Part shown: positions 14,806 through 44,192 of the stretch, one piece after another
How positions within the stretch are numbered: the stretch's first letter is position 1
Layout: each line of letters starts with the position of its first letter
Source of the DNA: Candidatus Magasanikiibacteriota bacterium
GTDB lineage: Bacteria > Patescibacteriota > Patescibacteriia > Magasanikbacterales > UBA922
Direction of reading: 5' to 3'
Assembly: GCA_016207245.1 (NCBI GenBank)
Contig: JACQQA010000009.1
Span: forward strand, 9,165-73,164
Length of the DNA: 64,000 nt
Notes under the pieces: generated by a model
Databases searched by the model: none
Seen by the model: the letters and a program-made list of their open reading frames with translations, nothing else
Told to the model about the DNA's origin: nothing
Made by a program: the position numbers and the translations under genes

Positions 14806-17238
14806 TTATCTATCCTCAGCCCTGTCTTCCTCTGCTCCCTCAACCTCTTCTTCAATGGCTCCAACGTCTTCCTCATCTTCTTCACTATTTTCATCGTCTT
14901 CATCACTATCTCCGTTATCTCCACTATCTCCATTTTCCTCGCCGCTCTCTCCATCATCAAACACATTAAACTCGCCGCCGGAATCAGTGCCGGAAACTTC
15001 TACCTCGGTCGTTAAAATTTCGCGCGGTTTCGCGCCATCAGCCGGGCCGATAATTCCCGCCGCCTCCATCTCATCCAAAATTCGCGCCGCGCGGGCGTAG
15101 CCGACTTTCAAACGGCGCTGTAATAATGACGCGCTGGCTTTGCCGGCTTGTAAAACCGCTGTTTTCGCTTCATCAAACATCGCGTCATGGTCATCGCTCG
15201 GCCCGCCGAACATATTCGCGGTTCCGCCGACAGCTTTCCCCACGATTGCTTCATCATATTCCGGCTCTTCATCGCCTTTCAAATAATTACCCACATTATT
15301 AACTTCCCCTTCGGAAATATAGGCGCCCTGAATCCGTTTTGGTTTGCTTAATTCCGCGGTTAAAAACAGCATATCGCCGCGGCCAAGCAGTTTTTCCGCG
15401 CCGGGACAGTCAAGAATCGTGCGCGAATCAATCAGCGACGCCACGGAAAACGCGATGCGAGCCGGAATGTTCGCCTTCATCAAGCCGGTGATAATATCAA
15501 CGCTCGGCCTCTGTGTGGCGACGATTAAATGAATGCCGACCGCGCGCGCCATCTGCGCCAGACGGATAATGCCGGCTTCAACTTCGCTCGCCGCGGATGC
15601 CATTAAATCCGCCAGTTCGTCAATGATAAACACAATGTGGGGTAATTTGGTTTCCGGATGTTTTTCATTATATGAATGAATATCGCGCGAACCGGCTTGC
15701 GCTAAAATTTCAAACCGCCGATCCATTTCGCCGGTTGTCCACTTCAGCGCGTTCACGGTTTTCTGCACATTGGTAATCACCGGCGCCAACAAGTGCGGGA
15801 TGCCATTATATAAAGTAAGCTCAACTCGTTTCGGGTCAACCATAATAAACCGCAAAGTTTCCGCGGTGTTCTGATACAACAAACTCATGATAATTGTGTT
15901 GATGCACACGGTTTTTCCCGAACCGGTCGCGCCGGCAACCAATAAATGCGGCATTTTCGGCAAATCCGCGAACCACACTTTGCCCGCGACATCTTTCCCC
16001 AACGCGATCATCAGATTGTGTTCGCGCTCGGCAAATTCCCGGCTTTCCAAAAGCTCTTTCAATGTTACCAGCGCGGCTTTGAAATTTGGCACTTCAATTC
16101 CGACCAAGGATTTCCCCGGAATCGGAGCTTCAATACGAATCGGATGCGCGGCCAAAGCCAAAGCCAAATCATTTGAAAGCGAGGTAATGCGGGAGAGTTT
16201 GACACCCTTCGCCGGTTTCAAAGAATATTGGGTAACCGCCGGACCAACTCTGATTTCCCCCATTTCCACTTCGATGCCAAACTCAGACAACATGCTCTGG
16301 ATCGCCTGTGCGTTCGCCTCAATGTCTCCGCTCGTCGGCTTGTCCCGTTTCGTGGTTAACAAAGAAAGCGGCGGCAAATTTTTTATAATCACTCTCTTTG
16401 TCCACGGCGAAGAATTTTTTTCTTTACCCTGAGCTTGCCGAAGGGCTTCCTCCTCTTCTGTTTCCGCGCCTTCTTCCTCGCCGTTGTTGTTCCCAGCCAT
16501 GGCTTTTTTAACAAACGCCCGCTGTTTATTCACATCCACTTCATCATCTTCATCACCTTCCCCGCCATAGACGGGTCCGCCTTGGGCGGAAACATTATCA
16601 TCATCTTCGCTTTCATATCCTTCAAACTCGCCGTTAACTTTAACGCCACCACTCCCGGTCTTAACGAATAATTTAAACAAATTAATTACTGTCTGTCCGG
16701 CCAAGCCCAAGCCCGCGAATAATTTTTTATTCAACAAAACAAAATGGGCAAGCGCAGTGTTGAAAATTAAAAATACGGATACGGCCGCCATTCCGACCAG
16801 AACCACCACGCTCGCGATTGAACCCAAATATGTTTTCATCGGCCAAGCCAGCATTCCGAACACGCCGCCACCGCTTCCTTCTAGCGCCATACTCCACATT
16901 TCCGTTGGATTAAAACCGATATGGAACAAGCTGGAGAGCGAAAGAAAAAATAAAATCGCGCCAATGCCATGCGTCTTGCGATAGTTGTATTCAATGTCTT
17001 TAAAATAAAACCAGGCGAGGATTAAAATAATCGCCGGCGCCGCATAACGCATTGAACCAAACAAAAAACTCAAAATATACTCGTCCAGCATAATGCCGAC
17101 CGCGCCCGCTTTTCCCAAAAAACTCAAAACAAAAAGAATGGCGGCAATCACCAAAACAATGCCGATAATCCCGCGGGATAATTCCGGGTCAAAGCGTTGG
17201 GAATGGTGATGGTATGGGCGGGGCATAAAAAACAACAA
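14806..17238 (-). CDS. ftsK: DNA translocase FtsK/SpoIIIE
   Basis: N-terminal TM helices, acidic linker, AGATGSGKT Walker A, and C-terminal gamma winged helix. Confidence 0.97.
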   Translation of the reverse strand: MLFFMPRPYHHHSQRFDPELSRGIIGIVLVIAAILFVLSFLGKAGAVGIMLDEYILSFLFGSMRYAAPAIILILAWFYFKDIEYNYRKTHGIGAILFFLSLSSLFHIGFNPTEMWSMALEGSGGGVFGMLAWPMKTYLGSIASVVVLVGMAAVSVFLIFNTALAHFVLLNKKLFAGLGLAGQTVINLFKLFVKTGSGGVKVNGEFEGYESEDDDNVSAQGGPVYGGEGDEDDEVDVNKQRAFVKKAMAGNNNGEEEGAETEEEEALRQAQGKEKNSSPWTKRVIIKNLPPLSLLTTKRDKPTSGDIEANAQAIQSMLSEFGIEVEMGEIRVGPAVTQYSLKPAKGVKLSRITSLSNDLALALAAHPIRIEAPIPGKSLVGIEVPNFKAALVTLKELLESREFAEREHNLMIALGKDVAGKVWFADLPKMPHLLVAGATGSGKTVCINTIIMSLLYQNTAETLRFIMVDPKRVELTLYNGIPHLLAPVITNVQKTVNALKWTTGEMDRRFEILAQAGSRDIHSYNEKHPETKLPHIVFIIDELADLMASAASEVEAGIIRLAQMARAVGIHLIVATQRPSVDIITGLMKANIPARIAFSVASLIDSRTILDCPGAEKLLGRGDMLFLTAELSKPKRIQGAYISEGEVNNVGNYLKGDEEPEYDEAIVGKAVGGTANMFGGPSDDHDAMFDEAKTAVLQAGKASASLLQRRLKVGYARAARILDEMEAAGIIGPADGAKPREILTTEVEVSGTDSGGEFNVFDDGESGEENGDSGDNGDSDEDDENSEEDEEDVGAIEEEVEGAEEDRAEDR

Positions 17239-34102: not shown

Positions 34103-34588
34103 TTATAATGCTTGCCCAATCTTTTTCTTTTTTGTCCTTGTCAGTTCTCCAAAAACAATCGTTGTCGCTCCCACCACAATCATCACATCCGCCAAATTTA
34201 TCACCCCAGTCAAAATCCGCAAGTAATCAATCGTGGCGCTGAAGAGAACTCTGTCTATAAAATTAGATAACGCACCAGAGATAATTAAACAATTAGCAAT
34301 TAACAAATAACAATCGGCCGCTTTGTCAGCAAATAATTTAATTAACCAAACAACCAGTCCAAAAATAATCAACGGCGTGATTAAAACCAACAGCCAATTC
34401 GGAAACGGTAAAGAAAACGCGATGCCGGGATTGGCCATATACTCCCATCCCAGCCACTTGCCAATAATATGATACTCAAAATCCTGATTGCTCCGCGCGA
34501 AAAATTTTAATAACTGGTCCACCAACAAAAAAATTCCGCCCATGCCCACTAATACGCAGACCCTCGGACGGAATTCTTTAATAAACAT
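34103..34588 (-). CDS. lspA: Lipoprotein signal peptidase II
   Basis: NPGIAFS, ALSNFIDR and INLADVMIVVG motifs. Confidence 0.9.
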   Translation of the reverse strand: MFIKEFRPRVCVLVGMGGIFLLVDQLLKFFARSNQDFEYHIIGKWLGWEYMANPGIAFSLPFPNWLLVLITPLIIFGLVVWLIKLFADKAADCYLLIANCLIISGALSNFIDRVLFSATIDYLRILTGVINLADVMIVVGATTIVFGELTRTKKKKIGQAL

Positions 34589-34652
34589 ATTTCTCTATCT
34601 CTATATCTCTATTTATCTCCGTTATCTCAACCATCTCCCATCTCAAATCCCT
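34589..34652. repeat. ~8-nt-period degenerate tandem repeat (ATCTC on plus strand, GAGAT on minus strand) in the lspA leader
   Basis: tctctatctctatatctctatttatctccgttatctcaaccatctcccatctc. Related tract at 40561-40596. Confidence 0.6.
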
Positions 34653-34696
34653 CAATAACAATTTTAAAAATAGAACAATTCAACAACAATCACTCA

Positions 34697-35089
34697 CTAT
34701 ATCTCATCCGTCAACGCCTTCTTGCAACTCACGCACGCGCCGGATGTCGGCCGAGCCAACAAACGTTTCTCGTCAATCGGCTTATCGCAATACTTGCAAA
34801 TTCCATAACCGCCCTTTTTCAAGCGCTCCAAAGATTTATTTACATCGCGTAATTCTTTTTCCAACGCGATCTCCATCGGCTTGTCCGCGGTGTATTGCGC
34901 GATCTCTTGGGCGTTCTCATCTTCTTTGTCGCCATATTCAGGAAACTCAGCGTCATAATCATCTTTGATATGTTTGTTTTTTGTGGTAAATTTTGCCAGC
35001 TCGCTTTCCAGTCTGGTTTTTTCCGACAATAATAATTTCTTTATTTTGTCTAAAAACTCTGGGCTGAACGCATTAATCTTTTTAGCCAT
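34697..35089 (-). CDS. TraR/DksA-family C4 zinc-finger protein
   Basis: CKYCDKPIDEKRLLARPTSGACVSCK four-Cys finger after a coiled-coil region. Confidence 0.8.
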   Translation of the reverse strand: MAKKINAFSPEFLDKIKKLLLSEKTRLESELAKFTTKNKHIKDDYDAEFPEYGDKEDENAQEIAQYTADKPMEIALEKELRDVNKSLERLKKGGYGICKYCDKPIDEKRLLARPTSGACVSCKKALTDEI

Positions 35090-35190
35090 ATAATTAACAT
35101 TACTCCATTATTATAAATAAAATCACTAATCAATGCAAGGGGAGATAGTATAAAACACAAAACTCGCGCTGTCAAGCATAACAACAAAAT

Positions 35191-35660
35191 AAAAAAGGCG
35201 GTCAAGCGCCCTAGGTAAATAACTTAACGGCGTGCCGCCTCAGTATCCCCAGGATACGCCTTTCAGGTAATCTAAAGGTGTTTTCCTCGCCACGCCGTAG
35301 TCCGCCCGAGGCGGACGAAGGCAGGCAAAAATACACTTAGAATACCTGAAACGCGACTGTCCTTGGGGACAGTAGTCTCCTTTCTACCGCCATAAGGTGG
35401 ACATTCCCGGCGATTCGGCCCGAAGGCACAAAACGCATAATGGGAAGTCACCGTTTCGAGCTAGCCATTAATTTTTGGCTTTTATTTTTGTTTCTTCGTC
35501 ACGCCGTAGTCCGCCCGAGGCGGACGAAGGCGGACACCCGATTGAGTCGGGAGCTAACGAATGGTAAGCTCGAAATTTGAGGTAGTAAAAAGGGAAGTGC
35601 TCCACCTGAATAAATTCAGAAGGAACAAATCCTGACTTTTAAAGAACAATTTTAAAGTAT
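35191..35660 (-). ncRNA. Candidate ~470-nt structured RNA of unknown class
   Basis: ORF-free region with a consensus promoter at 35667-35695 and a GGCG..CGCC + T6 end at 35191-35210. Many hand-paired helices, for example ACUGUCC-CCAA-GGACAGU, CCCGA-CUCAA-UCGGG, GUAUCC-UGGG-GAUAC, GGCGU...ACGCC. A ~36-nt hairpin module is duplicated. Confidence 0.6.
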
Positions 35661-35666
35661 ATTAAT

Positions 35667-35695
35667 AGTATAGCACATTTTTTAACTCTTGTCAA
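35667..35695 (-). promoter_or_regulatory. Promoter TTGACA-N17-TATACT driving the candidate ncRNA
   Basis: -35 at 35690-35695, -10 at 35667-35672, 17-nt spacer counted by hand. Confidence 0.65.
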
Positions 35696-35734
35696 GGGCA
35701 TTATGATGCTTTTTTAATTTTTTGCTAATTTTAG

Positions 35735-35771
35735 ATAAAAAATAATAAAACTTGTCCGCCGAAGAGGCGGA
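35735..35771 (-). terminator. Rho-independent terminator after ychF
   Basis: Minus strand TCCGCC-TCTTC-GGCGGA followed by CAAGTTTTATTATTTTTT. Confidence 0.6.
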
Positions 35772-35796
35772 ATAGTATACACTAGTGTATACTATT
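35771..35796. promoter_or_regulatory. Perfect 26-bp palindrome AATAGTATACACT|AGTGTATACTATT
   Basis: All 13 pairs checked by hand. Candidate dimeric-protein binding site. Confidence 0.5.
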
Positions 35797-35812: not shown

Positions 35813-35857
35813 AGTTATCCACAATTTAGCCAAGTTTTCCCCAGAGTTATCCACAAT
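35813..35857 (+). promoter_or_regulatory. Two identical 13-mers AGTTATCCACAAT, each with a perfect DnaA box TTATCCACA, 32 bp apart
   Basis: Boxes at 35815-35823 and 35847-35855, upstream of the ncRNA promoter and next to an AT-rich tract (35712-35752). Confidence 0.55.
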
Positions 35858-37338: not shown

Positions 37339-37359
37339 TTTGTGGACCCACCGGGAATC
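37339..37359 (-). repeat. Orphan copy of the 3' end of tRNA-Ala(CGC) (21-nt direct repeat)
   Basis: tttgtggacccaccgggaatc at 37339-37359 is identical to 37417-37437 (tRNA 3' acceptor/T arm plus 4 nt). Confidence 0.75.
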
Positions 37360-37420
37360 TCCGCCCAAGGCGGATGCGCCTCGGGCGCAGAACCCCTGCT
37401 TCACTATATTCAAAAATTTG

Positions 37421-37572: not shown

Positions 37573-37777
37573 CAAAGCCGTGGCGGGCAGGTATCCGTTG
37601 CCATGCACCGCGTGGGGCGCATGGTCCGCCTCTGGCGGAAACTACGAGGGCTTATTTCGCGATATGACAATCTTCTGACCACCAAAAATAATGGACAAAA
37701 GATTGTTGGGGCGGTGTGAATGATAGTCGCCCCAAAGAAAAAGAACGGGTGGGCCATGGTTTCAACGCGCCGGCGTT

Positions 37778-37981
37778 TTACTCCACTGCTAGAGGTGGGG
37801 CGACAAAGGATGTTGTGGAAGCCGAAGGCGGGGATTGTGAGCCGTTGTCAGGAGTCTCCCCACAACAGCGCGGACAACAATGCCCTTCGCAGGTGTGTTC
37901 GTTGCCATGGTCTGGCTTTCCTGCGCAACAGCCCGATTGACCACGACAGGACGGTGGAGAAAGTGTATTGGAAAGATTCAC
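37778..37981 (-). CDS. GC-rich island 4: 67-aa Cys-rich peptide (8 Cys, 3 His)
   Basis: AAAGGAGG SD 5 nt before GTG at 37981. (M)NLSNTLSPPSCRGQSGCCAGKPDHGNEHTCEGHCCPRCCGETPDNGSQSPP...; consensus promoter upstream. Confidence 0.5.
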   Translation of the reverse strand: MNLSNTLSPPSCRGQSGCCAGKPDHGNEHTCEGHCCPRCCGETPDNGSQSPPSASTTSFVAPPLAVE

Positions 37982-38051
37982 TCTTACCTCCTTTTGGATT
38001 TTCCGCCTTGAACATTCAGGGCGGTACCGCATTTGCATACGGATGGCCGGT

Positions 38052-38080
38052 AGTTTACTGACAAAAATAAATTTTGTCAA
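38052..38080 (-). promoter_or_regulatory. Promoter TTGACA-N17-TAAACT for the Cys-rich peptide gene (and possibly downstream tRNAs)
   Basis: Counted by hand. Confidence 0.55.
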
Positions 38081-38095
38081 ATTAGTTGTTAACTC

Positions 38096-38124
38096 TTGAC
38101 AAGATACTTAACATATGTTAATAT
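38096..38124 (+). promoter_or_regulatory. Promoter TTGACA-N17-TAATAT for the HTH-Doc operon
   Basis: Counted by hand. Confidence 0.6.
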
Positions 38125-38148
38125 ACTAAGTGTACTTAACAGAGCACT

Positions 38149-38406
38149 ATGGCGGACAAAAATCAAATTTCTACAGCCGAGCTGGCCAAAATGCTCAGAA
38201 TCAGCCGGGTGGCGATTTTTTATAAAATCAAACGCGGAGAAATACCGGCGATTAAGGTTGGACGAAATTATGTTATCAACACTTTTGATTTGCCGTATTT
38301 ATTTGGTCATGAATTAAATGCGGATAATAAGCGCGAGGTTGTCGGCGCGGTAAGACGAACAGTCAAACAATACCGCAAAACCCTGGAATTGCTGGGACGA
38401 GAATAA
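38149..38406 (+). CDS. Excisionase/MerR-type HTH protein (likely antitoxin of Doc)
   Basis: LAKMLRISRVAIFYKIKRGEIPAIKVGRNYVI (HTH_17-like). 5 nt upstream of the Doc gene. Confidence 0.7.
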   Translation: MADKNQISTAELAKMLRISRVAIFYKIKRGEIPAIKVGRNYVINTFDLPYLFGHELNADNKREVVGAVRRTVKQYRKTLELLGRE

Positions 38407-38411
38407 TTTTT

Positions 38412-38828
38412 ATGCGCAAAATTTATATTCAAGAGGTAGAATTCGTCGCGCATACCTTGGCGAAAGAAACCGTGGCTTGGAATGAACCAATCCCGCCTTT
38501 TGATACCCGTTTCCCTGGTGTTTTGGAAGGATGTCTCGCCACGCCTTTTGGCGCCTTCAGCAGACATCCGTTTTATCCCGGCCTTACCGGCAAAGCCGCC
38601 ATGCTTTTTTATTTGTTGATAAAAAACCACCCTTTCCAAAACGGCAACAAAAGAATCGCTGTGGTCGCCCTGTTGTTTTTCTTGTTAAAAAACAAAAAAT
38701 GGATTAGAGTTGATAGTGTAGAATTCTACAATTTCGCCCGGTGGGTGGCGGAAAGCAACCCTAAACTAAAAAACGAAACTGCGGCGGCGATAAAAAAATT
38801 CATTGATACTTACCTAACTGACACCTAA
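38412..38828 (+). CDS. doc: Fic/Doc family toxin (death-on-curing)
   Basis: HPFQNGNKRIAVVAL is the Fic motif HxFxxGNKR. Confidence 0.85.
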   Translation: MRKIYIQEVEFVAHTLAKETVAWNEPIPPFDTRFPGVLEGCLATPFGAFSRHPFYPGLTGKAAMLFYLLIKNHPFQNGNKRIAVVALLFFLLKNKKWIRVDSVEFYNFARWVAESNPKLKNETAAAIKKFIDTYLTDT

Positions 38829-38831
38829 TCT

Positions 38832-40584: not shown

Positions 40585-40968
40585 TCAATCTATTTTCATC
40601 ACTCCTGCTTTTCCCAAAACAAAATTTATATCTTTTTCAATCTCCCCATACTCCGCCCCCACCACTCCCGGCTTGGCCATAACAGAAACATGAAAACCGG
40701 TTTTCAGTTTCCCATCCTTCAATAATAAACGAACAACCTCGCGCATTTGCCGTTTAATCCGGTTGCGTTTAACCGCGCTCTTGCTAACTTTGACGCTAAC
40801 AACAAAAGCAATCTTTAAGTCGTCTGTCATATATTTCCGCCGCGGATATTTTTCCAGATTTATTTTCCAAATCTTCGCGGTAATGAATTTGCCGACAAAA
40901 AATCCACTCTCTTTAAAGAGAATATCAAAATCTTTCATGTGTTTTAGGCGATTTTCTTGCGGAAGCAT
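40585..40968 (-). CDS. rnpA: Ribonuclease P protein component
   Basis: Start MLPQENRLKHMKDFDILF, then KSAVKRNRIKRQMRE. Sits downstream of rpmH. Confidence 0.85.
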   Translation of the reverse strand: MLPQENRLKHMKDFDILFKESGFFVGKFITAKIWKINLEKYPRRKYMTDDLKIAFVVSVKVSKSAVKRNRIKRQMREVVRLLLKDGKLKTGFHVSVMAKPGVVGAEYGEIEKDINFVLGKAGVMKID

Positions 40969-41064
40969 AAAAACATCCAAACATATTAACATTCTAACAT
41001 ATTGGCACAAAAACAAAAGCGGCTGTTGCCGCTCGTGTTTCAATGTTAAAATGATTGTTTGTTT

Positions 41065-41241
41065 TTAGTGCGTTCTCTTGGTTCTCTTACCCTTGCGCTC
41101 ATCGCTTACAGTTAATTTCTTTCTGCCTTTAACTCGGCGTCTTTTTAATACCCCGCGGCCGTCCTGGGTCTTCATCCTGGCGCGGAAACCATGTTTTTTC
41201 GCTCTCTTGCGCTTATTTGGTTGGTAAGTTCGTTTAGACAT
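41065..41241 (-). CDS. rpmH: 50S ribosomal protein L34
   Basis: Own translation: [45 protein letters not shown]... (58 aa, below the ORF-track cutoff). Confidence 0.93.
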
Positions 41242-41312
41242 AAAATTAAATTTAGTGTGGAATAACTATATCATTGCCGTGTTTTATTGTCAAATTTGGC
41301 ATTTTCGCCTCT

Positions 41313-41351
41313 TTATCCCCACTATCCACAGTTTATCCCCAATTTACCCAC
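41313..41351 (+). promoter_or_regulatory. Four tandem DnaA-box-like 9-mers upstream of dnaA
   Basis: TTATCCCCA (41313), CTATCCACA (41322), TTATCCCCA (41333), TTTACCCAC (41343), all in the same orientation. Confidence 0.7.
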
Positions 41352-41418
41352 TTTTTGGCTGGTTTAAGCCATTTTTGCTTTATAAAAAGTGTGGTAGAAT
41401 AGGACAAAAGAGAAAATT

Positions 41419-42819
41419 ATGACTAATCACGAAATATGGCAAGCAGTGTTAGCAGAGTTTGAATTAAAGCTAACTAAAGCCAATTTTACCACATGGTTCC
41501 ACCACACCGGCATATCTGAATATGAAAACAATCAGGTGGTGATTTGTGTTCCCAGCGCTTTTGCCAAAAACTGGCTAGAAAAAAAACACCACTCTGAAGT
41601 GGTAAAAATACTGGAAAAAGTGACTGGGAAGCCTTTAAAAAGGGTGGAATATCGAGTGGAAAACATAAAAAACATCGCGGAGCATGAGTGTGTTGTTGCC
41701 ACAACAAAAACAACACCTGCTCCGACTAGTGCTTTGGTGGCGCCCCAAAACATTCCAACACCCAAAACAAGCGGCCAAAACGGCGTTAGGTTTGGCCTTA
41801 ACCAAAACTACCTCTTTGATACTTTTGTTGTTGGCAAAGGTAATGAGTTGGCGCACGCCGCGGCTCAAGCGGTTGTAAATAGGCCGGGAGAAGCTTACAA
41901 TCCTCTCTTTATATATGGCGGAGTGGGTTTGGGAAAAACCCATCTTTTGCAAGCGATTGGACATGGTCTTTTGGAAAAAAACCCGCAAACCAAGATTCTT
42001 TATGTGAGTTCCGAGCGTTTTACCAATGATTTTGTATCTTCGGTTAAAGAGGGCCGAGCCAAAGAGTTTAAAGATCGGTACCGCAATGTTGATTTATTAT
42101 TAATTGATGATATTCAGTTCATTGGCGGCAAAGAACAGACACAAGAAGAGTTTTTTCACACCTTTAACGAACTACACCAACAACACAAACAGGTGGTAAT
42201 GACGTCTGATCGTCCGCCAAAAGCTATTCCGTCGCTGGAAGACCGTTTGCGCAGCCGTTTTGAGTGGGGAATGATTGTTGATGTGGCGGCGCCAGATCTT
42301 GAGACTCGCGTAGCTATTTTACAAACAAAGTGCCAAGAAAAATCTTTTATTTTAGACCAAAAACTCGTTCAAATGGTCGCGGTTGCCATCCAAAGCAATA
42401 TCCGTGAACTTGAGGGGGTTCTAAATAAAATAATCGCGGTCCACCAACTAAAAAACATGTCACCAAACGAAGAGTCGGTCCGGTCAGTCTTGTCCACATT
42501 GGAAGCGCAAAACCTGAGGCGTTCGGCAACACCAAAAGATGTTGTTGGTGTTGTTTCCGAGTTTTATGGTGTCGGACTTGACGATATTGTTGGCAAAAGC
42601 AGGGAAAAACGCTTGGCCGGACCGCGGCAGGTTGTCATGTTTTTGTTGCGCAACGAGCTAAAGATGTCTTATCCCGCAATTGGCGATGAGTTGGGCGGCA
42701 GAGACCACACCACGGCCATGCACGCGCACACCAAGGTCGGCACAGAAATGGAAAACGACCTTAAACTAAAACAGGATATTGAGGCAATCAAACAAAAATT
42801 ATATATTGGCGCCAGCTAA
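41419..42819 (+). CDS. dnaA: Chromosomal replication initiator DnaA
   Basis: GGVGLGKTHLLQAIG Walker A and C-terminal DHTTAMHA DNA-binding motif. Confidence 0.98.
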   Translation: MTNHEIWQAVLAEFELKLTKANFTTWFHHTGISEYENNQVVICVPSAFAKNWLEKKHHSEVVKILEKVTGKPLKRVEYRVENIKNIAEHECVVATTKTTPAPTSALVAPQNIPTPKTSGQNGVRFGLNQNYLFDTFVVGKGNELAHAAAQAVVNRPGEAYNPLFIYGGVGLGKTHLLQAIGHGLLEKNPQTKILYVSSERFTNDFVSSVKEGRAKEFKDRYRNVDLLLIDDIQFIGGKEQTQEEFFHTFNELHQQHKQVVMTSDRPPKAIPSLEDRLRSRFEWGMIVDVAAPDLETRVAILQTKCQEKSFILDQKLVQMVAVAIQSNIRELEGVLNKIIAVHQLKNMSPNEESVRSVLSTLEAQNLRRSATPKDVVGVVSEFYGVGLDDIVGKSREKRLAGPRQVVMFLLRNELKMSYPAIGDELGGRDHTTAMHAHTKVGTEMENDLKLKQDIEAIKQKLYIGAS

Positions 42820-43067
42820 CAACATGTGGAGAACGTGCGCGAATCCTGTTTAAATATGGTTGATATCAACGAACATTAATCACAGTTTTTCCACCGACAA
42901 AAATTTTTTACGAAAAATAACAACAATTTCTTAACAGACAAACAACAAAAGCTTTAACACAAAATTCATTAAAACTAAGCGATAAATATCGTTTTTACAC
43001 CAAAAACACAGCCCCTACTATCTATTACTATATATTTATATAATTCGATTAGTAACACGATAATAAT
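42820..43067. other. AT-rich dnaA-dnaN spacer, candidate oriC/DUE
   Basis: 248 bp, strongly AT-rich (ctatctattactatatatttatataatt), with the degenerate box TGTGGAGAA at 42825-42833. Confidence 0.4.
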
Positions 43068-44192
43068 ATGAAGTTTATTTGCACCAAAGAAAACTTGTCT
43101 TATTCGTTGGATTTGGTTAGCGGGGTGGCGGGAAGGCATGCAAGCCTGCCCATCCTATCGAACATCCTTGTGCAGGCCGAGACGTCCGGCGTCAGGTTGG
43201 TGTCCACAAACCTTGAGATGGCCACAAAAGCGAACCTGCGCGCCAAAGTTGATGAAACAGGGTCTTTCACTGTGCCGGCAAAAACATTAACCGACTTTGT
43301 GCATCTTTTGCCGGACGAACAAGTGGAGATTTCTCTACAAGAGAACGAGCTGTCTATAAAATGCGGAAACTCTTCCACAAAAATAAAAGGCGCGCCAGCG
43401 GATGAATATCCGGTAGTGCCGGAAATTGAAGAACAACACGCGTACGCGATAAACGCGGACAAGTTTAAGGACGCGCTGTCTCGCGTGGTTTTTGCCAGCG
43501 CGAAAAACGAGATCAGGCCGGAGCTTTCCGGTGTTTATTTTGGTTTGTTTACGGAGAGACACGCAGGAATGATACTGGCGGCGACAGACTCTTTTCGTTT
43601 GGCGGAAAAGAAGCTTGAAGTTGAACAAGGAAGCGATGAGGCGCGGGCGATTGTTCCAGCCAGAACCGCTTATGAAATGTCGCGGCTGGTTTCTTTGGCA
43701 AAGAACAAACAGGGAGAAGCGCAGATTAGGTTGTGGCTGAGCGACGGGCAGATTGCCATGCGCTACGATGATTTTGAGGTTAGTTCTCGTTTGGTTGAGG
43801 GGAAGTATCCAGATTACGCGCAGATTATTCCGACAAAAACAAAAACCACCGCGAGTTTTCCTGTGGGCGTTATGGTAAACAAAATAAAAGCCGCGAGTTT
43901 GTTTACCGCCACGGGCGTAAACGCGGTTTCGTTTGATTTAAACGCGGGGCAAGGAACAATCGGACTGTCTTCCACCAGCACACAAACCGGCGAACACTCA
44001 TCGGAAATAGAATCCGAAGTGGTTGGCGAGGAAAACTCAATTTTATTAAACCACCGCTATGTTTTGGATGGCTTACAAAATCTTAACAACGAAGACGGCG
44101 AGCTTGGGGTGAACAGCAGCGACACACCCTGTGTGTTTAAAGCAAAAAGCAAAGACGATTATGTTTATGTGGTGATGCCGATTAGGCAGTAA
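43068..44192 (+). CDS. dnaN: DNA polymerase III beta sliding clamp
   Basis: Full-length DnaN-like, 374 aa, directly after dnaA. Confidence 0.96.
   Translation: MKFICTKENLSYSLDLVSGVAGRHASLPILSNILVQAETSGVRLVSTNLEMATKANLRAKVDETGSFTVPAKTLTDFVHLLPDEQVEISLQENELSIKCGNSSTKIKGAPADEYPVVPEIEEQHAYAINADKFKDALSRVVFASAKNEIRPELSGVYFGLFTERHAGMILAATDSFRLAEKKLEVEQGSDEARAIVPARTAYEMSRLVSLAKNKQGEAQIRLWLSDGQIAMRYDDFEVSSRLVEGKYPDYAQIIPTKTKTTASFPVGVMVNKIKAASLFTATGVNAVSFDLNAGQGTIGLSSTSTQTGEHSSEIESEVVGEENSILLNHRYVLDGLQNLNNEDGELGVNSSDTPCVFKAKSKDDYVYVVMPIRQ

Follow-up and report, generated by a model that had tools for sequence, protein, structure and literature searches.

A probable stand-alone, highly structured RNA gene conserved in Candidatus Magasanikbacteria

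We analysed the intergenic region between ychF and a dksA-like gene in a 64,000-nucleotide stretch of DNA from a Candidatus Magasanikiibacteriota bacterium (assembly GCA_016207245.1, contig JACQQA010000009.1, positions 9,165 to 73,164 of the forward strand; the whole stretch is referred to below as the window). On balance, we favor the interpretation that this region contains a stand-alone, non-coding, highly structured RNA gene, which belongs to an undescribed family conserved in Candidatus Magasanikbacteria (Patescibacteria, also known as the candidate phyla radiation, CPR). The family is found in neither Rfam 15 nor the literature that we searched. All coordinates are those of the window, and the RNA and the features linked to it are located on the minus strand.

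Organization of the RNA locus

The gap between the stop codon of ychF (35883) and the start codon of the dksA-like gene (35089) is 793 nt long, and all open reading frames (ORFs) within it are at most 59 aa. An initial annotation, made from the sequence of the window, had described this gap as free of ORFs, with a GC-rich transcript between a consensus promoter and a terminator, and each of these features was recovered here. Promoter P1 of the RNA (TTGACA, 17 nt, TATACT; 35667..35695) matches the consensus in 11 of 12 positions and also carries the TG of an extended -10 element (TGn); a hairpin followed by T6 is located at 35212..35191; and the GC content is 0.50-0.54 in the RNA vs. 0.30-0.42 in the flanks. 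We infer that transcription starts near 35660, so that the predicted transcript, delimited by the promoter and the terminator, comprises ~470 nt (35191..35660), including two inserted hairpins, whereas the RNA is ~385-390 nt long in relatives that are free of these inserts. The minimum free energy (MFE) of the 470-nt transcript is -196.6 kcal/mol (z = -9.1), compared to z = -9.4 for the opposite strand; because both strands fold about equally well, the assignment of the strand rests on the promoter and the terminator.

The order of the elements in the locus is fixed, from DnaA boxes through an AT-rich spacer, P1, the RNA, its terminator and a second promoter (P2) to the dksA-like gene and lspA. 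In the window, the AT-rich spacer (35696..35754, GC ~0.30) lies between P1 and a hairpin at 35755-35771 that is ychF's own terminator.

Conservation in related genomes and metagenomes

Judging from the relatives of its YchF, the window belongs to Candidatus Magasanikbacteria. Homologues were sought with nhmmer in 80 ychF loci of Magasanikbacteria, to which 80 metagenomic loci were added by way of the DksA-like protein. Full-length homologues of the RNA were identified in 10 of the 80 ychF loci, and the genome loci combined with the metagenomic dksA-like loci yielded 30 distinct full-length RNA sequences, which were aligned (alignment A3). The search for homologous sequence in relatives, which the initial annotation had proposed, was therefore successful in both genomes and metagenomes. 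The -10 element of the promoter and the terminator are retained in the 30 homologues, and the TGnTATAAT motif is nearly invariant (alignments A1 and A3). No conserved ORF was detected among the 30 homologues, in which the longest ORFs vary in position, length and strand.

In loci where the DksA-like protein is 56-66% identical, the nhmmer matches were weak but collinear. Most of these diverged loci contain a 600-1000-nt gap without an ORF, with a TGnTATAAT promoter 420-530 nt before the gene; their sequences can be aligned to one another and have the core blocks of the family in common. For these loci, we used a covariance model (R2) that consists of the H4 hairpin and the 3' strand of helix H2 (both located below), with a hand-specified structure of 18 pairs; the automatic consensus structure of the sub-alignment (R1, 9 pairs) made a poor model and was set aside in favor of R2. 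This model detects the H4 domain in ~20 further diverged loci, on the expected strand and in the expected position, with E-values from 1e-7 to 0.03, and scores 76.5 bits at 35379-35453 in the window. In a control set of 621 kb, comprising 70 ychF loci without the RNA together with the window, nothing scored above 11 bits besides the window's own RNA. A protein search with the DksA-like protein returned only relatives with at least 67% identity and did not extend the phylogenetic range.

Conserved secondary structure

The structure was predicted with RNAalifold from 11 and then from 30 sequences, and a pseudoknot was added by hand. The resulting model contains 101 pairs in 13 helices; 90.3% of the cells are paired, and both sides have changed in 66 of the 101 pairs. 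The observed values of pairing and compensation were not reached in any of 500 shuffles, and when the partners were slid by 1-3 columns, pairing fell to 39-47% and the number of compensated pairs to 24-35. Covariation among the relatives, which was also to be checked according to the initial annotation, is strong by these measures, and the conserved fold with its pseudoknot supports the description of the RNA as highly structured. In the diverged set, 80% of the H4 domain is paired and 16 of its 18 pairs are compensated, compared to 36-49% pairing in the slid controls, although these values come from an alignment that was fitted to the model and is hence biased towards it.

Two domains are predicted. 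In the 5' domain, the long-range helix H2 closes a three-way junction, which holds H3, an A-rich strand and H4. This domain is preceded by the 5' hairpin H1 (GGAUUUGUUCCUUCUGAA ... UCAGGUGGAGCACUUC; 35594..35632), in which GUUC is invariant and 8 of the 15 pairs are changed on both sides. The 13 pairs of H2 (93.6% paired) join a 5' strand at 35581..35593 (CCUUUUUACUACC) to a 3' strand at 35379..35391 (GGCGGUAGAAAGG), which is the most conserved block of the family (GGUAGARRGG) and is part of R2; the ACUNC/GNGGU portion of the helix is kept in the diverged homologues. The H3 domain (35457..35572) is formed by pairing of CGAGCUUACCAUUCGUU (35556-35572) with AAUUAAUGGCUAGCUCG (35457-35473), with 12 of 14 pairs changed on both sides, and encloses a variable hairpin, the first insert and the A-rich strand. 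This single-stranded segment (AAACAAAAAUAAAAG; 35479..35493; family consensus AAAACAAAAACAAAAG) contains A columns that are invariant or nearly so in A1 and A3; a coding role for it was considered and rejected, given that there is no common reading frame in A1. H4 (35396..35452) is a hairpin of three tiers (GGUG/CACC, UUCC/GGAA and GCGUU/AAUCGC; apical sequence UGUGCC-UUCG-GGCCG), corresponding to helices 5-8 of the model.

The 3' domain comprises H5, H6 and the terminator H7. The loop of the H5 hairpin (CUGUC-CCCAAG-GACAG; 35357..35372) provides the 5' strand of the pseudoknot (CCCA, 35364-35367), which pairs with UGGG(G)A downstream of H6 (3' strand UGGG, 35248..35251). All 4 pairs of the pseudoknot are changed on both sides, for example, CG in 23 sequences and UA in 6, and C-to-U changes are matched by G-to-A changes in three loci (L012, L011 and L049). 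H6 is a long hairpin (35258..35354) in which GCGUUUCAGGUAUUCUAAGUGUAUU (35330-35354) pairs with AACACCUUUAGAUUACCUGAAAGGC (35258-35282); 19 of its 21 pairs are changed on both sides, and the second insert is located at its tip. H7 (35191..35241) is a two-tier terminator hairpin followed by U6 (35191-35196), with an outer stem GAGGCGG/CCGCCUU, an inner stem CGCC/GGCG and a conserved AU-rich loop of 18 nt. Its two tiers, helices 12 and 13 of the model, are 95% and 93% paired, respectively, and the architecture is kept in the diverged homologues.

The helices that the initial annotation had drawn by hand fared unevenly in this comparison. Three of them (CUGAAUUUAUUCAG, GAGCU/AGCUC and ACUGUCC/GGACAGU) belong to the conserved H1, H3 and H5, respectively, but CCCGA/UCGGG, GCCA/UGGC, CCUUU/AAAGG and GUAUC/GAUAC are only 30-67% paired across the 30 homologues (58% overall) and are lineage-specific or chance pairings. 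The remaining one, GGCGU/ACGCC, overlaps two other hand-drawn helices and did not enter the count on its own. The initial annotation had missed the pseudoknot, the closing long-range helix of the 5' domain, the upstream DnaA boxes and the strict link to dksA-like/lspA. Two further candidates for tertiary or long-range contacts were dropped: an all-against-all search for covarying columns was swamped by clade-driven false pairs, and a kissing pair in which CUAGG of the 5' leader would contact CCUAG of the terminator loop showed no covariation in A1.

Relation to the downstream operon

The linked dksA-like/lspA operon (34103..35089) adjoins the RNA and encodes a DksA/TraR-type C4 zinc-finger protein of 130 aa (34697-35089) and the signal peptidase II LspA (34103-34588), both identified by Pfam matches. 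Its promoter P2 (TTGACA, 17 nt, TATACT; 35147..35175) directly follows the RNA terminator. The RNA lies immediately upstream of dksA-like/lspA, in the same orientation, in all 10 genome loci, including the one (L046) that is unlinked from ychF. An equivalent of P2 (TTGMCA-17-TATAAT), matching 9-12 of 12 positions, was identified between the terminator and the start of the dksA-like gene in 27 of the 28 close loci, with 8 of 12 positions matched in the remaining one, and P2 is present in diverged loci as well. Because a near-consensus promoter follows the RNA terminator, the operon would be independent of read-through, and because the operon has such a promoter of its own, a stand-alone gene is favored over a leader. 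The sequence data are also consistent with the earlier suggestion that the RNA is independently transcribed, in that it appears to have its own conserved promoter and terminator, while P2 would serve the downstream operon.

The main rival explanation, which we consider rather unlikely, is that the RNA is a very large 5' leader of dksA-like/lspA, akin to an attenuator or a riboswitch, where a ligand or macromolecule would be sensed and read-through of the terminator controlled, with P2 providing basal expression. Consistent with this possibility, the RNA is always located directly upstream of the operon and co-oriented with it, and an intrinsic terminator is found 65-250 nt before the start codon (~440 nt in L095). 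Furthermore, in two diverged clusters (8 of 9 sequences), as well as in L150 and L160, the 5' strand of the terminator can pair, in the manner of an antiterminator, with a segment located 6-12 nt before it, with energies of -11 to -22 kcal/mol vs. -13 to -16 kcal/mol for the terminator; the pairing covaries, with GCC changed to GUC and GGC to GAC in L139. H5 and the pseudoknot of the window are in competition, as both involve the same GUC bases. Conversely, a near-consensus sigma-70 promoter separates the terminator from the operon in essentially every lineage. No conserved local antiterminator was detected in the clade of the window and the other 29 close homologues, where the partners of the terminator strand are scattered, and one diverged cluster also lacks the antiterminator-like segment. 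At ~390 nt and with at least 10 helices, the RNA would exceed all known riboswitches and T-boxes in size, and it shows no T-box signature.

T-box leaders and attenuating riboswitches resemble the RNA in their position upstream of an operon, in the intrinsic terminator and, in some lineages, in the antiterminator-like hairpin. The differences are the lack of a T-box sequence or model match in the RNA, the separate promoter of the operon after the terminator, and the restriction of the antiterminator-like element to some lineages. In Firmicutes, ileS carries a T-box leader and is followed by the related ylyA-lspA genes. Seven diverged loci (L116, L133, L129, L127, L139, L149 and L132) contain a near-copy of the 3' strand of the terminator 6-12 nt before its 5' strand, such that two hairpins are mutually exclusive; the pairing covaries between lineages, and this arrangement is absent in the clade of the window.

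DnaA boxes and the origin region

Upstream of the RNA, we identified two perfect DnaA boxes (TGTGGATAA in the orientation of the RNA; 35847-35855 and 35815-35823) that are 32 nt apart and 120 nt upstream of the -35 element of the RNA, against a background of 0.18 perfect boxes per kb. Of the 28 close loci, 27 have at least one perfect box in the 350 nt upstream of the RNA; the 32-nt pair is present in 17 of these, and many close loci have a third, inverted box near the promoter. In nearly all homologous loci, there are 1-3 perfect boxes, and pairs are often 32 or 20 nt apart. Among the diverged loci with sufficient upstream sequence, 13 of 14 have at least one perfect box, and a perfect box is also found in L046/L143, where the locus has been relocated. 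The recurrence of these motifs suggests that transcription from P1 is probably under DnaA control.

The window also contains a classical origin neighborhood (40588-44189), in which rpmH and rnpA are encoded on the minus strand and dnaA-dnaN on the plus strand. Between rpmH and dnaA, a spacer of 178 nt (41241-41418) contains 5-6 degenerate DnaA boxes, and the minimum of the cumulative G-C curve is at ~41.5 kb. The RNA locus is located ~6 kb from rnpA|dnaA-dnaN and is origin-proximal in other arrangements as well; in L005, dnaN lies ~2 kb beyond lspA.

We also considered the possibility, to which we assign a low probability, that the locus is part of, or accessory to, the replication origin. The DnaA boxes and the AT-rich spacer would then constitute a DnaA-binding or unwinding element, and transcription would serve the origin, through activation, an R-loop or a primer, rather than produce an RNA that acts as a folded molecule. 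Several observations are compatible with such a role: the perfect boxes and the AT-rich stretch of ~59 nt directly upstream of P1 move together with the RNA upon relocation; at least 8 DnaA-box-like sites are present within ~150 nt in L046; and the locus is close to rnpA|dnaA-dnaN in the window, where the cumulative G-C curve is level between 37.5 and 43.5 kb, and to dnaN in L005. Nevertheless, the 66 compensated pairs and the pseudoknot indicate selection on the fold of the RNA product, not merely on transcription, and transcription runs away from the boxes and stops at a strong terminator. The rpmH-rnpA|dnaA site has its own set of degenerate boxes and is itself located at the G-C minimum; replication from 35.8 kb would bring a fork head-on against ychF and the tRNA genes; and the RNA strand is not G-rich, so that R-loops are not favored.

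Clusters of DnaA boxes are known outside oriC, including the B. subtilis clusters and DnaA-regulated genes such as sda, and datA and DARS in E. coli. The present locus resembles these in that a few consensus boxes are clustered beside a promoter, between genes and close to the origin; none of the B. subtilis clusters, sda, datA or DARS is known to drive a large structured RNA. Between the DnaA boxes and the ychF terminator, there is a perfect 26-bp palindrome (AATAGTATACACT/AGTGTATACTATT; 35771-35796), which may be the binding site of a dimeric regulator, and TATAC-containing repeats flank the first DnaA box.

Comparison with known RNA families

A scan of the window with cmscan against Rfam 15 (4227 families) at gathering thresholds identified only five tRNAs, all located elsewhere in the window. 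A permissive scan of the region produced only implausible matches (E >= 0.1) to unrelated microRNA, snoRNA and leader families; the same scan of 11 homologous loci likewise gave nothing relevant, and neither did separate searches with the short homologues L005 and L140, for which matches were listed down to ~12 bits. In particular, the covariance models of OLE, ROOL, GOLLD, raiA and HEARO had no match in the window, the 11 loci or the two short homologues. The proposal that the RNA belongs to no recognizable class thus agrees with the scan of all Rfam models, in which no relevant match appears even at ~12 bits.

Searches for the signatures of individual families were equally negative. For transfer-messenger RNA (tmRNA), ARAGORN found no candidate and there is no Rfam match; a T-loop motif is present in 6 of 46 sequences, in places that are not conserved. 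For 6S RNA, there is no Rfam match, and the fold is branched, with two domains and no pairing of the 5' end with the 3' end. The domain IV motif of the signal recognition particle (SRP) RNA (GGAA tetraloop and AGCA/GGAAGCAG symmetric loop) occurs in 0 of 46 sequences, with no Rfam match. The T-box sequence (GGUGGNACCGCG) is also found in 0 of 46, again without a match to RF00230; a T-box-like GGUGGUA is fully paired within H2, and the downstream genes are dksA-like and lspA. A group I intron, including the divergent tRNA introns of CPR, is not indicated either, because the RNA has its own promoter and terminator, and also considering that there are no tRNA halves at the ends, that the order of helices is unlike P3/P7 and that RF00028 shows no match. 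The absence of tmRNA and SRP signatures and of a P4 pairing of RNase P, which the initial annotation had noted by eye, was reproduced with ARAGORN, motif searches and the fold. In the literature on structured RNAs of CPR or Magasanikbacteria, we found no description of the RNA.

RNase P RNA was the universal RNA that called for the closest comparison, and we consider it very unlikely that the present RNA is a highly divergent universal RNA of this or another kind. The presence of rnpA at 40588-41043 implies that an RNase P RNA must exist somewhere in the genome, and the size (385-470 nt), the strong promoter and the high conservation would fit a housekeeping RNA. It is known that the RNase P RNAs of CPR are diverged and often score under the Rfam cut-offs (PMC8172020): 10 of 35 complete CPR genomes required lowered RF00010 thresholds, and many of the RNAs recovered in this way lacked helices (PMC8172020). 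These diverged RNAs share with the present one the group of organisms, a similar size and the failure to be detected at default Rfam thresholds, and rnpA is in the window. We searched for the RNase P signature of CR-I (GGAAAGUCC) and CR-IV/V (ACAGAA...GGCUUA), which form P4. CR-I (GGAAAGUC) was found in 0 of the 46 homologues, GGCUUA in 6 and ACAGAA in 9, neither of the latter at conserved positions. There is no P4-type long-range pairing in the model, in which the sole pseudoknot joins the H5 loop to a downstream strand, and no P1-type pairing of the ends was apparent, as the duplex energy of the 5' 35 nt with the pre-terminator region was about that of shuffled controls (30 sequences). Among the matches listed at E <= 10, none was to an RNase P model, either for the region in the window or for L005 and L140, and no RNase P, tmRNA, SRP or 6S model was listed down to ~12 bits. 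Even the diverged forms from CPR 'still had many conserved features' (PMC8172020), unlike the present RNA, in which CR-I, CR-V, P1, the P4 pseudoknot and any sub-threshold match to RF00010 are all absent; ARAGORN, as noted, argues against a tmRNA.

Repeated hairpins inserted in the RNA

The initial annotation had further pointed to a module that occurs twice in the RNA, ~209 nt apart, and had described it as a GC hairpin with a symmetric 4x4 internal loop. Two copies are indeed present, as a 46-nt direct repeat (35282-35327 and 35491-35536, 91% identity, 209-nt spacing) with a 24-nt core that occurs exactly twice in the 64 kb (0 expected from 100 shuffles), and each is a GC hairpin, but the internal loop is 3x3 (UUC/UAC) when the flanking G-C pair is counted as paired, and the module is not a feature of the family. 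Both copies are missing from the closest relatives (L004, L084 and L086, with DksA-like proteins 87-92% identical), in which the rest of the RNA is kept (A3), and because these relatives lack it, we rejected the module as a conserved functional motif. Insert 1 (UGUCCGCCUUCGUCCGCCUCGGGCGGACUACGGCGUGACGAAG; 35494..35536, 43 nt) is a GC hairpin in the H3 multiloop, and insert 2 (GCCUGCCUUCGUCCGCCUCGGGCGGACUACGGCGUGGCGAGG; 35285..35326, 42 nt) is a GC hairpin at the tip of H6. In the MFE structure, each insert folds by itself as a hairpin. At exactly these two sites, L092 carries different GC hairpins (L092:740-1236), and the one at site 2 holds the reverse complement of 21 nt of the window's module, which suggests mobility at the DNA level or an inversion between the arms of H6. 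The comparison of these sequences indicates that the module lies outside the functional core, as a recent insertion in two places where the structure tolerates it (the multiloop of H3 and the H6 tip). The module is also complementary to the 5' strand of the terminator. Three short Logan contigs of the same strain (L001-L003, from runs SRR12113385, SRR12113383 and SRR12113424) start inside module copy 1 or 2, which is the behavior expected of repeats; because the module interrupts assemblies in this way, the RNA gene will tend to be fragmented by automated pipelines.

Repetitive extragenic palindromes (REP elements) are mobilized by RAYT transposases, and a GTAG sequence is their hallmark. Read on the opposite strand, the module is GTAG-TCCGCC-CGA-GGCGGA (plus strand, at 35297 and 35506), and the site-1 hairpin of L092 is GTAG-CCCC-GAA-GGGG. 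A third copy of GTAG..TCCGCC..GGCGGA is found at 37625-37645, and in total, the 64 kb contain 3 copies with GTAG and 6 TCCGCC..GGCGGA hairpins, including the ychF terminator. The inserted modules have the form that defines a REP element, namely, an imperfect palindrome of 20-40 nt after a conserved GTAG. The likeness, which applies to the inserts only, extends to their size and composition (GC-rich imperfect palindromes of 35-45 nt preceded by GTAG on the opposite strand), to their location outside protein-coding sequence, and to L092, which keeps GTAG with a different palindrome and has one copy inverted. The difference is the presence of only 3 copies of GTAG with a palindrome in 64 kb, one of which follows a duplicated tRNA-Arg 5' end, so that its GTAG may derive from the tRNA. 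By analogy, we regard the resemblance of the inserts to REP-type palindromic elements as a lead.

That the whole region contains no functional RNA, and that GC-rich palindromes of a REP-like kind and terminators have merely accumulated in a long intergenic spacer, has next to no probability: the two near-identical GC hairpins of the window copy, with GTAG and a palindrome on the opposite strand, and similar TCCGCC...GGCGGA hairpins elsewhere in the window (four places, the ychF terminator among them) could give this impression, but it is already contradicted by the closest relatives, which lack the hairpins and still keep the whole RNA, by a core that is conserved in sequence and through compensatory changes across lineages that nhmmer barely aligns, and by the conserved promoter and terminator. 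Within coding sequence (ORF 14806-17238), a TCCGCC-TTG-GGCGGA hairpin is present at 16576-16590.

Possible function and related systems

If the RNA is a stand-alone gene product, as we favor, it would act in trans as a stable folded RNA, most likely as a protein-binding scaffold. DnaA control would tie the level of the RNA to the status of replication or of the cell cycle, and the neighboring DksA/TraR-type protein, which is of an RNA-polymerase-binding type, would be the most likely functional partner or co-regulated function. Several points weigh against this interpretation. The trans-acting role and the control by DnaA are both read from gene order and sequence motifs only, and the 5' and 3' ends of the transcript are predictions. 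Strict adjacency to one operon over a wide evolutionary range would also be expected of a leader, and the antiterminator-like pairing in some diverged lineages favors a cis-regulatory interpretation in those lineages. In addition, the family was sought only near ychF and dksA-like genes.

In a bolder form of these ideas, which we consider unlikely, the locus would encode a large structured, CPR-specific RNA whose synthesis is set by DnaA and which works with the DksA/TraR-type protein, as a new kind of RNA-protein regulator that couples replication status to transcription, or else a new macromolecule-sensing leader far larger than any known riboswitch.

Among known RNAs, OLE, the raiA motif, ROOL and GOLLD are the most similar in general character: they are stand-alone RNAs of hundreds of nt with many covarying helices, long-range pairs and pseudoknots and a narrow phylogenetic range. 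Most of these RNAs have no assigned biochemical function, and OLE has a fixed protein-coding neighbor, oapA, just as dksA-like/lspA is the fixed neighbor here. The present RNA differs from all four in matching none of their models, in its CPR host and in the combination of DnaA boxes upstream with a DksA/TraR-type protein downstream; furthermore, ROOL and GOLLD are linked to phage or tRNA islands, whereas the present RNA has no such link. With 6S RNA (and Ms1), it shares the arrangement of a stand-alone RNA gene of the abundant type beside one conserved protein gene, in this case that of an RNA-polymerase-binding factor, and because the conserved neighbor is such a factor, a role at RNA polymerase is a reasonable guess by analogy. 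The structures differ, 6S RNA being a rod of ~180 nt with a closing stem and a central bubble, in contrast to the branched, two-domain fold predicted here, in which the 5' and 3' ends do not pair with each other.

Genomes of CPR (Patescibacteria) are ~1 Mb in size and contain very little non-coding DNA. The retention of a 400-nt RNA with 100 base pairs, a strong promoter and a fixed setting in such a small genome therefore implies an important function. Large structured bacterial RNAs of unassigned function are rare, and RNase P, tmRNA, 6S, OLE, ROOL and GOLLD each opened new biology. The conserved DnaA boxes, the DksA/TraR-type neighbor and the proximity to the origin offer testable handles on the present RNA, and the two natural sites that tolerate 40-nt hairpin insertions should be useful for tagging. 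Rfam-based annotation leaves a conserved RNA gene unrecognized in a whole candidate phylum.

Adjacent tRNA region

The window also contains tRNA genes with additional repeats. Directly after tRNA-Ala(cgc), a duplicated 3' fragment of tRNA-Ala (GGGGTTC ... GATTCCCGGTGGGTCCA) is located at 37340-37400 on the minus strand. Its T-loop is interrupted by two tandem GC hairpins (GCGCC-CGA-GGCGC and TCCGCC-TTG-GGCGGA) of the same kind as the inserts in the RNA. The GC-rich, ORF-poor segment at 37573-38830 was examined as a candidate for a second RNA and rejected, as it is not conserved in relatives, has no Rfam match and contains small protein genes. On the tRNA strand, this segment starts with a 12-nt duplicate of the 5' end of tRNA-Arg (GCCCTCGTAGTT), which is followed by a GTAG-TT-TCCGCC-AGA-GGCGGA hairpin. 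One of the small genes is a Cys-rich ORF of ~67 aa on the minus strand (~37778-37982), which has a good Shine-Dalgarno sequence; another, on the plus strand (~38151-38400), is a small excisionase-like ORF of the helix-turn-helix type. The segment looks like an element integrated at the tRNA genes.

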